Source: Escherichia coli (GTDB lineage Bacteria > Pseudomonadota > Gammaproteobacteria > Enterobacterales > Enterobacteriaceae). From it: a stretch of 58,190 nucleotides of DNA. Below the pieces are notes generated by a model. That model saw only the letters and a program-made list of their open reading frames with translations. It made no database searches and was not told the origin of the DNA. Positions within the stretch are counted from its first letter, which is position 1, and every line of letters begins with the position of its first letter. The stretch lies in assembly GCF_003334255.1 (NCBI RefSeq), contig NZ_QOWU01000031.1; one strand, 5' to 3'. The position numbers were made by a program, and so were the translations under genes. Positions 20,038-24,690 of the stretch are shown piece by piece.

Positions 20038-21705
20038 ATGATCCACGCCTTTATTAAAAAAGGGTGTTTTCAGGATTCGGTCAGTTTAATGATTATTTCA
20101 CGAAAACTCAGCGAATCAGAAAATGTTGATGATGTTTCCGTAATGATGGGTACGCCCGCCAATAAAGCGTTATTAGATACCACAGGTTTCTGGCATGACG
20201 ATTTTAATAACGCCACGCCGAACGATATTTGCGTGGCAATTCGTAGCGAAGCGGCGGATGCGGGGATCGCGCAGGCGATTATGCAGCAGCTTGAAGAGGC
20301 GCTAAAACAACTGGCGCAGGGGTCAGGCAGCAGCCAGGCGTTGACGCAGGTGCGTCGCTGGGACAGTGCCTGTCAGAAATTACCCGACGCCAGTCTGGCG
20401 CTGATTTCAGTGGCTGGCGAGTATGCGGCGGAGCTGGCGAACCAGGCGCTGGATCGCAACCTCAACGTGATGATGTTCTCCGATAACGTCACGCTGGAAG
20501 ATGAAATCCAACTTAAAAGCCGCGCGCGGGAAAAAGGCTTGCTGGTGATGGGGCCGGACTGCGGTACGTCGATGATTGCCGGCACGCCGCTGGCTTTTGC
20601 TAACGTGATGCCGGAAGGCAATATTGGCGTCATTGGCGCTTCCGGTACCGGGATTCAGGAACTGTGTTCGCAGATTGCGCTGGCAGGGGAGGGAATTACT
20701 CACGCGATTGGCCTTGGCGGGCGCGACCTCAGCCGTGAAGTGGGCGGCATCAGTGCGCTGACGGCGCTGGAAATGCTCAGTGCAGACGAGAAAAGCGAAG
20801 TGCTGGCATTTGTTTCAAAACCGCCTGCCGAAGCTGTGCGTCTGAAAATTGTTAATGCCATGAAAGCAACCGGCAAACCGACGGTGGCGCTGTTTTTAGG
20901 TTATACCCCGGCGGTGGCCCGCGACGAGAATGTCTGGTTTGCCTCCTCGCTGGATGAGGCCGCACGCCTGGCTTGCCTGCTTTCACGCGTTACGGCGCGA
21001 CGTAACGCGATAACGCCTGCCAGCAGCGGATTTATTTGCGGTTTGTATACCGGCGGTACCCTGGCTGCCGAAGCGGCGGGATTACTTGCTGGACACCTTG
21101 GCGTGGAAGCCGACGATACCCATCATCACGGCATGATGCTCGACGCCGATGGTCACCAGATTATTGACCTCGGCGATGATTTCTACACCGTCGGGCGTCC
21201 CCATCCGATGATCGACCCAGCCTTACGCAATCAGTTAATTGCCGATCTCGGCGCTAAACCGCAAGTGCGCGTATTGCTGCTTGATGTCGTGATTGGCTTC
21301 GGTGCGACCGCCGATCCTGCCGCCTCGCTGGTAAGCGCCTGGCAAAAAGCCTGTGCTGCGCGTTCAGACAATCAACCACTGTATGCCATTGCCACGGTGA
21401 CAGGCACTGAACGTGACCCGCAATGCCGCTCGCAGCAAATCGCCACGCTGGAAGATGCGGGGATCGCGGTAGTGAGTTCGCTGCCGGAAGCCACCTTGCT
21501 GGCGGCGGCACTGATTCGTCCGCTTTCGCCTGCCACTCAGCAACACACACCGTCATTACTGGAAAACGTCGCCGTGATTAACATCGGATTACGCAGCTTT
21601 GCGCTGGAGCTACAAAGCGCCAGCAAACCGGTTGTGCATTACCAATGGTCGCCAGTCGCCGGTGGCAATAAAAAACTGGCTCGTTTATTAGAACGTTTGC
21701 AATAA
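20038..21705 (+). CDS. fdrA: FdrA: succinyl-CoA-synthetase-alpha-like (CoA-binding) protein
   Basis: 555-aa ORF; synteny. First gene of a tightly packed four-gene co-oriented cluster. Confidence 0.85.
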   Translation: MIHAFIKKGCFQDSVSLMIISRKLSESENVDDVSVMMGTPANKALLDTTGFWHDDFNNATPNDICVAIRSEAADAGIAQAIMQQLEEALKQLAQGSGSSQALTQVRRWDSACQKLPDASLALISVAGEYAAELANQALDRNLNVMMFSDNVTLEDEIQLKSRAREKGLLVMGPDCGTSMIAGTPLAFANVMPEGNIGVIGASGTGIQELCSQIALAGEGITHAIGLGGRDLSREVGGISALTALEMLSADEKSEVLAFVSKPPAEAVRLKIVNAMKATGKPTVALFLGYTPAVARDENVWFASSLDEAARLACLLSRVTARRNAITPASSGFICGLYTGGTLAAEAAGLLAGHLGVEADDTHHHGMMLDADGHQIIDLGDDFYTVGRPHPMIDPALRNQLIADLGAKPQVRVLLLDVVIGFGATADPAASLVSAWQKACAARSDNQPLYAIATVTGTERDPQCRSQQIATLEDAGIAVVSSLPEATLLAAALIRPLSPATQQHTPSLLENVAVINIGLRSFALELQSASKPVVHYQWSPVAGGNKKLARLLERLQ

Positions 21706-21714
21706 GGGGTTCCC

Positions 21715-22974
21715 ATGTTTACATCAGTGGCGCAAGCCAATGCTGCGGTTATCGAACAAATTCGTCGCGCTCGTCCACACTGGCTGGATGTGCAACCGGC
21801 TTCTTCACTTATCAGCGAACTAAACCAGGGCAAAACACTGCTTCACGCCGGGCCGCCAATGCGCTGGCAGGAGATGACCGGACCTATGAAAGGGGCGTGC
21901 GTGGGCGCATGTCTGTTCGAAGGTTGGGCGAAAGATGAAGCGCAGGCGCTGGCAATACTGGAGCAGGGGGAAGTGAACTTCATTCCTTGTCACCATGTGA
22001 ATGCCGTCGGGCCAATGGGCGGTATTACTTCTGCCAGTATGCCGATGCTGGTGGTCGAGAACGTGACCGACGGCAACCGGGCGTACTGCAACCTCAACGA
22101 AGGTATCGGCAAAGTGATGCGTTTTGGCGCTTATGGCGAAGATGTCCTGACTCGCCATCGCTGGATGCGCGATGTGTTAATGCCAGTATTAAGCGCGGCG
22201 CTGGGGCGCATGGAGCACGGTATCGATCTCACGGCGATGATGGCGCAGGGCATTACCATGGGCGATGAGTTCCATCAACGCAATATTGCTTCCTCAGCAC
22301 TGTTAATGCGTACGCTGGCCCCACAAATTGCTCGCCTCGATCATGATAAACAGCACATTGCGGAAGTGATGGATTTCCTCAGCGTGACCGATCAGTTCTT
22401 CCTCAACCTCGCGATGGCCTACTGCAAGGCGGCGATGGATGCTGGCGCGATGATCCGCGCAGGCAGCATCGTTACGGCTATGACCCGCAACGGCAATATG
22501 TTCGGGATTCGGGTAAGCGGGCTGGGTGAACGCTGGTTTACTGCGCCTGTAAACACTCCGCAAGGTCTGTTTTTCACCGGCTTCTCGCAGGAGCAGGCGA
22601 ACCCGGATATGGGCGATAGCGCGATTACCGAAACCTTTGGTATCGGAGGTGCGGCAATGATCGCAGCGCCTGGCGTAAAGCGCTTTGTCGGTGCGGGTGG
22701 CATGGAAGCGGCCAGGGCGGTATCTGAAGAGATGGCGGAAATTTACCTTGAACGCAATATGCAGTTGCAGATCCCAAGCTGGGATTTTCAGGGCGCCTGC
22801 CTGGGACTGGACATTCGTCGCGTGGTAGAAACCGGTATTACGCCACTCATCAATACCGGTATCGCCCATAAAGAGGCGGGGATCGGGCAGATTGGCGCAG
22901 GCACCGTGCGGGTACCGCTGGCGTGTTTTGAACAGGCGCTGGAAGCACTGGCTGAAAGCATGGGGATTGGTTGA
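21715..22974 (+). CDS. ylbE: DUF1116-family protein, intact 419-aa frame
   Basis: Uninterrupted 419-aa ORF, 10 nt after the fdrA stop; synteny. Confidence 0.8.
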
Positions 22975-22984
22975 GGAACGCACA

Positions 22985-23800
22985 ATGACGATCATCCATC
23001 CTCTGCTTGCCAGTAGTAGCGCACCGAATTATCGCCAGTCCTGGCGGTTAGCGGGAGTGTGGCGACGGGCGATTAACCTGATGACGGAAAGCGGCGAACT
23101 GTTAACGCTGCATCGTAAGGGTAGTGGTTTCGGCCCCGGAGGATGGGTGCTTCGCCGCGCGCAATTCGATGCGTTATGCGGTGGATTATGCGGCAATGAA
23201 CGACCGCAGGTTGTGGCTCAAGGGATTCGCCTCGGGCGTTTCACGGTTAAACAGCCACAGCGTTATTGTTTGCTGCGTATTACGCCGCCTGCGCATCCTC
23301 AACCGCTTGCAGCTGCATGGATGCAACGCGCGGAGGAAACCGGGCTTTTCGGGCCACTGGCGATGGCGGCAAGCGATCCGCTGCCCGCTGAATTACGCCA
23401 GTTTCGTCACTGTTTTCAGGCCGCGCTCAATGGCGTTAAGACCGACTGGCGGCACTGGCTGGGTAAAGGACCCGGATTAACGCCAAGTCATGATGATACG
23501 CTGAGCGGAATGCTGCTGGCGGCCTGGTATTATGGCGCTTTAGATGCGCGCTCTGGTCGCCAGTTTTTTGCCTGTTCCGACAATCTTCAACTCGTTACCA
23601 CAGCGGTGAGCGTCAGTTATTTACGCTACGCCGCGCAAGGATATTTCGCCTCGCCACTCCTGCACTTTGTTCATGCTCTGAGTTGCCCGAAACGTACCGC
23701 TGTTGCGATTGATTCGCTGCTGGCGCTGGGGCACACGTCAGGGGCAGATACGCTGCTGGGGTTCTGGCTTGGTCAACAATTATTACAAGGAACACCATGA
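22985..23800 (+). CDS. ylbF: DUF2877-family protein
   Basis: 271 aa from the ATG at 22985; the track ORF from 22892 is an upstream in-frame extension overlapping ylbE. Synteny. Confidence 0.8.
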
Positions 23801-24690
23801 AAACACTGGTTGTAGCTCTTGGGGGCAACGCCTTACTCCAGCGCGGCGAGGCGCTGACGGCAGAAAATCAATATCGCAATATCGCCAGTGCTGTACCCGC
23901 GCTGGCGCGCCTGGCCCGTTCTTATCGGCTGGCGATTGTTCACGGCAACGGGCCGCAGGTGGGGCTGCTGGCATTGCAGAATCTGGCGTGGAAAGAGGTA
24001 GAACCGTATCCGCTGGATGTGCTGGTGGCGGAAAGCCAGGGGATGATTGGCTATATGCTGGCACAGAGTTTGAGCGCACAGCCGCAGATGCCGCCCGTGA
24101 CGACGGTGCTGACGCGCATTGAGGTTTCGCCTGATGATCCGGCGTTTTTGCAGCCAGAGAAATTTATTGGTCCGGTTTATCAGCCAGAAGAACAAGAGGC
24201 ACTGGAAGCGGCTTACGGCTGGCAGATGAAACGTGATGGTAAATATTTGCGCCGGGTGGTGGCGTCTCCGCAACCGCGTAAAATTCTCGACAGCGAAGCC
24301 ATCGAGTTGTTGCTCAAAGAGGGGCATGTGGTGATTTGCAGTGGCGGCGGCGGTGTGCCTGTGACGGAAGATGGGGCAGGGAGTGAAGCGGTGATTGATA
24401 AAGATCTCGCTGCTGCGTTGCTCGCTGAGCAGATTAACGCCGATGGGCTGGTGATCCTCACTGATGCTGATGCGGTATATGAAAACTGGGGAACGCCGCA
24501 GCAACGCGCCATTCGCCATGCCACACCGGATGAGTTAGCGCCATTTGCCAAAGCCGATGGTTCGATGGGGCCGAAGGTAACGGCGGTGAGTGGTTATGTC
24601 AGAAGCCGTGGTAAACCCGCGTGGATTGGGGCGTTATCGCGAATTGAAGAGACGCTGGCGGGCGAAGCGGGGACCTGTATTTCGCTGTAG
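23797..24690 (+). CDS. ybcF: Carbamate kinase-like protein
   Basis: 297-aa ORF with amino-acid-kinase-family N-terminus ([12 protein letters not shown]); ATGA stop/start overlap with ylbF. Confidence 0.85.

Follow-up and report, generated by a model that had tools for sequence, protein, structure and literature searches.

The four co-oriented genes at positions 20038-24690 of the window (the whole stretch of 58,190 nucleotides of Escherichia coli DNA that was analysed) almost certainly make up an intact and ordinary allFGHK operon of E. coli (fdrA-ylbE-ylbF-ybcF in the older nomenclature), which encodes the branch of anaerobic allantoin catabolism that yields oxamate. This operon is already known: its enzymes and regulators were characterised between 2021 and 2025, in experiments on K-12 strains (MG1655 and MC4100, mainly the former). 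The present analysis is useful as a correction, on the status of ylbE in MG1655, on outdated RefSeq product names and on the arrangement of allFGHK, which diverges from allDCE with a control region in common. The remaining scientific interest concerns how the three-subunit transcarbamylase is built and how it catalyses its reaction.

Gene content and organisation of the cluster

All four ORFs are uninterrupted, both in the ORF list and in translation (Table 1), and each start codon is preceded at a distance of 5-8 nt by a Shine-Dalgarno-like sequence (AGGAG, AGGGG, GAGGA and AAGGA). The mechanically derived ORF of ylbF begins with TTG at 22892; the annotated ATG, with its GAGGA Shine-Dalgarno, is at 22985. 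The compact, one-orientation arrangement described in an earlier note on this DNA was confirmed, including the 4-nt ATGA overlap between ylbF and ybcF. Of the gaps given there as 10 nt, the one between ylbE and ylbF has this length, and the one between fdrA and ylbE measures 9 nt. The four ORFs are true genes and not chance ORFs. Annotated E. coli chromosomes match the cluster stretch at 100% identity, and at least 80% of it is covered in 5408 of 5426 complete genomes. The window is chromosomal E. coli DNA, with the cluster forming part of the core genome of the species.

Table 1. Coordinates of genes and sequence features in the window.
Feature	Position	Strand	Description
allS	4653-5579	-	LysR-type activator, 308 aa, intact; regulatory role from PMC12535856
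allD-allC-allE operon	16619-19721	-	annotation of 100%-identical record; ORFs intact in window
allD/allF divergent control region	19722-20037		316 bp, AT-rich shared spacer
AllS-bound fragment counterpart	19835-19894	+	allFp -203/-144, 60 bp; coordinates from PMC12535856, mapped here
Phospho-ArcA-bound fragment counterpart	19896-19955	+	allFp -142/-83, 60 bp; coordinates from PMC12535856, mapped here
allF (fdrA)	20038-21705	+	555 aa, ATG..TAA; oxamic transcarbamylase subunit
allG (ylbE)	21715-22974	+	419 aa, ATG..TGA; oxamic transcarbamylase subunit; stop-free inside
G5 run, ylbE nt 252-256	21966-21970	+	site of historical K-12 "frameshift"
allH (ylbF)	22985-23800	+	271 aa; oxamic transcarbamylase subunit
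allK (ybcF)	23797-24690	+	297 aa; catabolic carbamate kinase; start overlaps allH stop (ATGA)
REP/BIME-type extragenic palindromic repeats	24711-24870		between convergent allK and purK

The cluster has the same genes, order, spacing and lengths as allFGHK of K-12 MG1655 (b0518, b4572, b0520 and b0521), and the same chromosomal neighbours, with allDCE on one side and purK on the other. The genes for AllF, AllG and AllH, orthologous to b0518, b4572 and b0520, are adjacent and co-oriented beside allDCE. Synteny is unchanged, nucleotide identity to the MG1655 genes is 97.4-98.2%, and differences at the protein level are allelic only, with 10, 5, 4 and 2 substitutions in AllF, AllG, AllH and AllK, respectively. 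The remainder of the all regulon, including allS, allR and allA-E, is also complete and intact within the window. On the 3′ side, the 194-nt spacer between allK and purK is identical in MG1655, and its REP/BIME region features two 53-nt copies of 89% identity and one 14-nt repeat. No canonical intrinsic terminator was detected 3′ of allK in a terminator scan, and an Rfam scan yielded there only sub-threshold matches to naRNA4, a REP-derived family.

Intact ylbE and the historical K-12 frameshift

The earlier note had read ylbE as a continuous frame of 419 codons, correctly, as translation reveals no internal stop, and had given this gene as frameshifted in the MG1655 reference, which is not the case. 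In the current reference NC_000913.3, ylbE (b4572) is intact, with 1260 nt and 419 aa. The alignment to MG1655 that had been proposed as a check is gap-free, and the old frameshift, a single missing G, maps to the run of five G at nt 252-256 of the gene. The frameshift is a feature of the older MG1655 sequence U00096.2 (PMC5460176, PMC4759930, PMC3045373). Simulated deletion of one G from this run, giving G4, leads to a TGA stop at codon 87; the window reads GGGGG at this position and so does not carry the K-12 pseudogene allele. A hidden frameshift or stop in ylbE is ruled out by the clean translation together with the gap-free alignment.

It could be supposed that the intact ylbE represents a strain-specific restoration, such that the cluster would be functional here and dead in K-12, a reading that draws on the frameshifted ylbE of both U00096.2 and the W3110 record. 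In the latter (NC_007779.1), ylbE has 1259 nt and is annotated as "frameshifted"; it departs from NC_000913.3 at two positions only, having A at nt 114 and lacking one G at nt 252. Against such a restoration stands not only the intact gene of NC_000913.3 but also the rarity of the G4 allele: among 5418 genomes with a match, exact full-length matches to a probe for this allele were confined to 4 records, each derived from K-12, and 5 records matched at 99% identity or above. In the full set of 5426 genomes, the complete G4 allele occurs only in W3110 and in the K-12-derived CIT, LIM and CAR records; one of these three was inspected and is annotated as "frameshifted" too, the others being assigned by probe match. 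Further, when 60 records were taken at even intervals along the match ranking, 59 had a gapless ylbE of 1260 nt, and the gene is gapless in the other K-12 assemblies XL1-Blue, MC4100 and AML003 as well. Finally, the active enzyme described in the literature was cloned from MG1655 DNA (PMC11326118). The probability of a restoration is thus close to nil. Intact ylbE is the E. coli norm, the current MG1655 reference included, and the census of the G4 allele and the evenly spread sample dispose of the notion that it is unusual. The "ylbE pseudogene in MG1655" is a legacy of U00096.2 and of the W3110 record that was not updated, and provides no basis for flagging strains as special.

The shared control region

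The placement of the cluster directly downstream of allDCE in the earlier note holds for position and fails for transcription, since allD (18672-19721), allC and allE all lie on the minus strand. fdrA and allDCE are transcribed divergently across a shared control region, of low GC content (about 35% in a 400-nt composition window, 19700-20099). A consensus promoter scan of this spacer gave 3 promoter-like sites, not above the 4.3 expected from shuffled sequence. In K-12, AllS is needed for transcription of the allF operon, AllS and ArcA activate the promoter, and binding of AllS and of phospho-ArcA has been observed by EMSA; allF is induced more than 38-fold under anaerobic conditions with allantoin, and induction is abolished in allS and arcA deletion mutants (Kim & Kim 2025, PMC12535856). 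Co-transcription of ybcF with the other three genes was established by RT-PCR (PMC9843812). In K-12, a single polycistronic mRNA starts within the 316-bp spacer, requiring AllS for the allantoin signal and ArcA for anaerobiosis. Such regulation probably applies in the window as well, where counterparts of both bound fragments and the allS gene are present.

The control region is the same as in MG1655 but for three positions, at -230, -169 and -135 (numbered from the allF ATG). The AllS and ArcA fragments each match MG1655 at 59 of 60 nt, with single SNPs at -169 and -135, respectively. That the cluster might be cryptic in this strain through promoter or coding changes is suggested by these three SNPs, of which -169 falls within the AllS-binding fragment and -135 adjoins the predicted ArcA site ranked second (centre -134), and by the 21 amino acid substitutions. 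However, the top-ranked predicted ArcA site (centre -117) and the Shine-Dalgarno sites are unchanged, no stops or frameshifts occur, and synonymous codon differences across the operon far outnumber non-synonymous ones (76 versus 21). Moreover, a 65-nt stretch carrying both -169 and -135 is found unchanged in about 368 complete genomes. A cryptic cluster is thus very improbable. The 21 differences from the characterised MG1655 proteins, along with the three promoter SNPs, were nevertheless counted against the reading as an ordinary functional operon, and nothing suggests that they have an effect.

Enzymes of the oxamate branch and comparison with known systems

An oxamate carbamoyltransferase role for the first three genes had been called "proposed" in the earlier note. 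The role is right and its status was understated, as deletion mutants and assays of the purified protein have established it. Purified FdrA-YlbE-YlbF is the oxamic transcarbamylase AllFGH (EC 2.1.3.5), which interconverts oxamate plus carbamoyl phosphate and oxalurate plus Pi without CoA; its Km values of 1.3 mM for carbamoyl phosphate and 36.9 mM for oxamate were obtained with activity measured only in the reverse direction (carbamoyl phosphate plus oxamate), and the phenotypes of allF, allG and allH deletions show that all three genes are required for oxamate formation in vivo (Kim & Kim 2024, PMC11326118). The carbamate kinase-like nature of the last gene product, also noted earlier, was confirmed: AllK exceeds the cut-offs of the equivalog models NF006926 (621.1 bits, cut-off 416) and TIGR00746 for arcC (426.7 bits, cut-off 358.25), and matches carbamate kinases in PDB with E values from 1.3e-89 (best, 8CRV) to 3.7e-37. 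The gene is 98.0% identical to b0521 at the nucleotide level, with the substitutions D191E and N260K, and kinetics measured on MG1655 YbcF have defined it as allK, encoding a catabolic carbamate kinase (Kim & Kim 2022, PMC9843812). By analogy with its MG1655 orthologue, AllK of the window would make ATP from ADP and carbamoyl phosphate.

The sequence of events, as demonstrated experimentally in K-12 strains, is as follows. The allDCE products (ureidoglycolate dehydrogenase, allantoate amidohydrolase and ureidoglycine aminohydrolase) feed oxalurate to AllFGH, with AllD oxidising ureidoglycolate to oxalurate. The AllF-AllG-AllH complex then cleaves oxalurate by phosphorolysis to oxamate and carbamoyl phosphate, and AllK transfers the phosphate of the latter to ADP, giving ATP, NH3 and CO2. 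Orthology, synteny, intact ORFs and the presence of intact allS and upstream all genes suggest that this pathway operates in the window as it does in K-12.

FdrA scores well above the cut-off of NCBIfam model NF004760 over its full length (1043.6 bits, cut-off 433, positions 1-555), is the E. coli protein of PDB entry 3DMY ("Protein fdrA", E 5.6e-302), and is encoded by a gene with 97.7% nucleotide identity to b0518. The D296Y variant described to give higher oxamate output (PMC8550087) is not among its 10 amino acid changes. AllG matches PF06545 (formerly DUF1116) over all model positions (1-215 of 215, E 1.9e-97), and AllH matches PF11392 (formerly DUF2877; E 2.1e-29), with the family-invariant residues present and strict conservation of a Gly-rich/Asp-Asp and a GHTSG motif. 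No NCBIfam model matches AllG or AllH, although the Pfam models do, and the structure-database search found no characterised structural relatives of either: the only match of AllG is an uncharacterised structural-genomics entry, and no solved structure matches AllH. RefSeq product names trail the literature, with "acyl-CoA synthetase FdrA", "DUF1116" and "DUF2877" still in use, whereas Pfam already uses AllG and AllH.

FdrA features the CoA_binding (PF02629) and Ligase_CoA (PF00549) domains, shared with SucD and NDP-forming acyl-CoA synthetases, and residues 66-238 of SucD align to its residues 118-290 (21% identity, E 6e-9, pairwise BLAST). These features, and the RefSeq product name, would fit an NDP-forming acyl-CoA synthetase or an oxamate:CoA ligase, with YlbE and YlbF as unrelated proteins of unknown function. 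Yet FdrA falls far below the cut-offs of two succinate-CoA ligase alpha equivalog models (52.4 versus 336 and 47 versus 353 bits) and so lies outside the SucD equivalogs, and the purified AllFGH needs no CoA. The three proteins are also linked by natural AllF-AllG fusions followed by AllH, such as a 1003-aa fusion (P0093) with 40% identity to FdrA over its full length and an AllH gene next to it. A CoA ligase with unrelated neighbours is hence highly unlikely. No significant similarity of AllG or FdrA to SucC, the ATP-grasp beta partner, was found. Since the FdrA-SucD alignment ends at SucD residue 238, before the MGHAGA phospho-histidine loop, FdrA apparently lacks this loop, for which a single pairwise BLAST is a weak test.

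For the transcarbamylase, AllF may thus provide a succinyl-CoA-synthetase-alpha-like scaffold, in which N-carbamoyl phosphorolysis would parallel the conversion of acyl-CoA and Pi to acyl-phosphate and CoA, apparently minus the phospho-histidine loop. AllG probably binds AllF 1:1, given the existence of natural AllF-AllG fusions, and the conserved motifs of AllH may form an anion site for phosphate or carbamoyl phosphate. A literature search for structural or mechanistic work on AllFGH later than 2024 found none. In other taxa, AllF-AllG pairs or fusions occur with or without AllH, next to amidases, amidohydrolases and transporters, not carbamate kinase. It is tempting to speculate, if doubtful, that AllFGH represents a broad and mechanistically new class of enzymes that use an acyl-CoA-synthetase chassis for phosphorolytic ureide/amide cleavage, oxalurate being one substrate among several.

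In formal reaction, AllFGH resembles the ATCase/OTCase/YgeW superfamily, in which a carbamoyl group likewise passes between phosphate and the nitrogen of an amino or amide group. There is, however, no kinship in sequence or domains, OTCace_N and OTCace domains being absent from AllF, AllG and AllH in Pfam and NCBIfam searches, and AllFGH requires three different subunits instead of one catalytic chain. The arginine deiminase pathway, with its catabolic OTCase and ArcC, follows the same energetic logic as AllFGH and AllK: a transcarbamylase yields carbamoyl phosphate, from which a neighbouring carbamate kinase produces ATP, NH3 and CO2. The carbamoyl donor is citrulline in the arginine deiminase pathway and oxalurate in allFGHK, whose transcarbamylase is unrelated to OTCase.

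Layout and distribution of the fdrA-ylbE-ylbF-ybcF cluster

The window derives from the E. coli chromosome, and the 4653-nt stretch holding fdrA, ylbE, ylbF and ybcF (now allF, allG, allH and allK) has exact (100% identity) counterparts in several complete genomes, e.g. that of strain G1/2 (NZ_CP060083.1). At least 80% of it is covered in 5408 of 5426 complete E. coli genomes, and the four genes are annotated in the identical sequence in RefSeq. As described in the earlier note, the four ORFs share one strand and are tightly packed. The spacers between the first three measure 9 and 10 nt, and ylbF and ybcF overlap by ATGA; a Shine-Dalgarno-like sequence precedes each of the four starts. 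The mechanical ORF of ylbF opens earlier than its annotated ATG, at TTG 22892. The cluster had also been placed downstream of allDCE, which does not hold in the transcriptional sense: allD, allC and allE are minus-strand genes, so that fdrA is transcribed divergently from them across a shared, AT-rich spacer of 316 bp (19722-20037; GC about 35% when computed over the 400-nt composition window that includes it).

Features of the cluster and its flanks (window coordinates)
Feature	Position	Strand	Remarks
allD	18672-19721	-	ORF/annotation
fdrA	20038-21705	+	555-aa ORF
ylbE	21715-22974	+	419-aa ORF, no internal stops
ylbF	22985-23800	+	271 aa; annotated ATG 22985 with GAGGA Shine-Dalgarno site
ybcF	23797-24690	+	297-aa ORF
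allK/purK convergent spacer	24691-24884		194 nt, identical to MG1655; REP/BIME palindromic repeats
REP copies	24711-24763, 24781-24833		also 24756-24769 and 24857-24870, within the allK/purK spacer

FdrA scores 1043.6 bits against NCBIfam model NF004760 (cut-off 433) and carries CoA_binding and Ligase_CoA domains (Pfam), while YlbE and YlbF match PF06545 ("AllG, oxamate carbamoyltransferase subunit", E 1.9e-97) and PF11392 ("AllH", E 2.1e-29), respectively. The reading of the last gene as carbamate kinase-like is borne out by two carbamate-kinase equivalogs (621.1 against a cut-off of 416, and 426.7 against 358) and by published work on purified YbcF, a catabolic carbamate kinase (PMC9843812). 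A terminator scan detected no canonical intrinsic terminator 3' of allK, and Rfam naRNA4 matches in the allK/purK spacer were sub-threshold.

A few records depart from this arrangement. In strain AR_0085 (NZ_CP029741.1), only the last 35% of ylbE is matched, adjacent to fdrA, pointing to a deletion or rearrangement. The replicon that bears the cluster is labelled plasmid in two records. In two rare E. coli proteins, P0015 of 432 aa and P0020 of 430 aa, a single ORF joins YlbF and carbamate-kinase sequence; P0015 has both PF11392 and PF00696, and P0020 has PF00696 only, yet 62% of YlbF aligns with it. Presumably such ORFs arose by a frameshift or a lost stop at the ATGA overlap, or through misassembly.

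The intact ylbE frame and its K-12 reference versions

The earlier note held that ylbE is continuous here and frameshifted in the MG1655 reference. The first part stands; the second does not, as the current reference NC_000913.3 gives ylbE (b4572, YP_009029994.1) as an uninterrupted CDS of 1260 nt, to which the window gene aligns without gaps (23 nt and 5 aa differences). The frameshift belongs to the older U00096.2 sequence, where ylbE was a pseudogene until corrected by A to G at 547,694 and an added G at 547,831 (PMC5460176, PMC4759930, PMC3045373). The W3110 reference record NC_007779.1 (547581-548839; locus L003, 2280-3538) retains the form corrected for MG1655 in U00096.3, which may be either a genuine W3110 allele or a legacy error left in place: its ylbE, annotated "frameshifted", has 1259 nt and differs from NC_000913.3 only by A for G at nt 114 and by one G missing from the five-G run at nt 252-256. 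Simulated loss of one G from this run creates TGA at codon 87; the window has GGGGG at 21966-21970.

A 64-nt probe for the four-G allele (5418 genomes with a match) gave perfect full-length matches in four records only, W3110 and the K-12-derived assemblies CIT, LIM and CAR, whose coordinates follow the old numbering; the band of at least 99% identity comprised five records. Among 60 evenly spread sampled records, 59 had a gapless 1260-nt ylbE, including K-12 XL1-Blue, MC4100 and AML003. Since the four-G allele is so confined, intact ylbE is the ancestral, near-universal state and no peculiarity of this strain; its proposal as a special trait is rejected as an artefact of comparison with a superseded reference.

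Function, regulation and mechanism

The function of the cluster is settled by the literature, including the proposed oxamate carbamoyltransferase role of the first three genes. Oxamate formation from allantoin was linked to FdrA in 2021, with higher oxamate output from a D296Y variant (PMC8550087). RT-PCR found a single fdrA-ylbE-ylbF-ybcF transcript (PMC9843812). Deletion of any one of fdrA, ylbE or ylbF abolished oxamate formation, and purified His-AllF/AllG/AllH catalysed the reaction of oxamate with carbamoyl phosphate, with a Km of 36.9 mM and 1.3 mM, respectively (PMC11326118). In the pathway, AllD produces oxalurate, AllFGH converts oxalurate and Pi to oxamate and carbamoyl phosphate, and AllK makes ATP, NH3 and CO2. 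The operon is turned on by AllS and ArcA under anaerobiosis with allantoin: induction of allF'-lacZ (>38-fold) needs both, and they bind fragments -203/-144 and -142/-83, respectively (PMC12535856). The strains behind this work were K-12 throughout, namely MG1655 (deletions, cloning) and MC4100 (reporter fusions).

Nucleotide identity to MG1655 is 97.7, 98.2, 97.4 and 98.0% for fdrA, ylbE, ylbF and ybcF, with 10, 5, 4 and 2 amino-acid changes; D296Y is not among them. The codon differences over the four genes (76 synonymous, 21 non-synonymous) indicate purifying selection. The control region differs at -230, -169 and -135, and the counterparts of both EMSA fragments conserve 59/60 nt each. The -135 change adjoins the second-ranked predicted ArcA box, the top-ranked one being unaltered. 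The 65-nt stretch from -176 to -112, which includes the changes at -169 and -135, has exact matches in about 368 complete genomes, so this stretch is a common natural variant.

The enzyme has been stated to be unrelated to the ATCase/OTCase/YgeW family, with which our results agree. FdrA scores far under SucD family cut-offs; in one pairwise alignment its residues 118-290 match SucD 66-238 (E 6e-9). The alignment stops short of the SucD MGHAGA phospho-histidine loop, of which no counterpart is evident in FdrA, and the activity-raising D296Y falls right at this point. On this reading, phosphorolysis of the N-carbamoyl bond may perhaps parallel the acyl-CoA + Pi to acyl-phosphate half-reaction, without a phospho-enzyme. 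A literature search found no structural or mechanistic follow-up paper on AllFGH.

The AllG family comprises 3102 cluster representatives (E<=1e-3), many of about 1000 aa. Among these, protein P0093 joins full-length AllF and AllG in a natural fusion that shares 40% identity with FdrA, and an AllH gene overlapping it comes next. In "Rosetta-stone" fashion, this fusion supports a putative 1:1 physical unit of AllF and AllG. In other taxa the family is found alongside amidases, amidohydrolases and transporters, with AllH or carbamate kinase present or absent, and these varied contexts suggest that the module is used beyond oxalurate. Distant AllG homologues are fusions of about 1000 aa at loci L009 (2123-5954) and L010 (6001-9087); L009 has AllH, an adjoining amidase and purine/cytosine-type transporter, and no carbamate kinase. 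L012 (3363-7278) has AllF and AllG without AllH amid ABC-transporter and amidohydrolase genes, and L011 (3143-6401) a lone AllG, with an AA_kinase-family gene about 1 kb away.

Genomic surroundings and comparison with known systems

Elsewhere in the window (~31196-33830, junction 31316), little separates folD from the usher ORF that comes next (31419-33830, 803 aa, GTG start), annotated in the near-identical G1/2 genome as sfmD "missing N-terminus"; no sfmA or sfmC ORF of at least 100 aa lies between them. At this junction G1/2 carries an IS1 that the window lacks, the two being otherwise collinear. The only other indel over the 57.4 kb compared is at 2179 (T8 against T7 in G1/2), within a small annotated hypothetical ORF by RHS remnants (rhsD, ybbC). 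By collinearity with G1/2, envY, ybcH and nfrA come immediately after argU tRNA-Arg (~36100-37140), a position that in K-12 presumably holds prophage DLP12 along with the appY/ompT region. The other all-region genes (allS, allR, allA, gcl, hyi, glxR, allW, allB, ybbY, glxK and allE/C/D) are intact.

Everything flagged in the earlier note is thus already known, and the operon is ordinary and intact. It is an allelic copy of MG1655 allFGHK and agrees with it in genes, their lengths and spacing, neighbours and control region. With the arginine deiminase pathway, which pairs a catabolic OTCase with ArcC, it shares its logic but not its ancestry.
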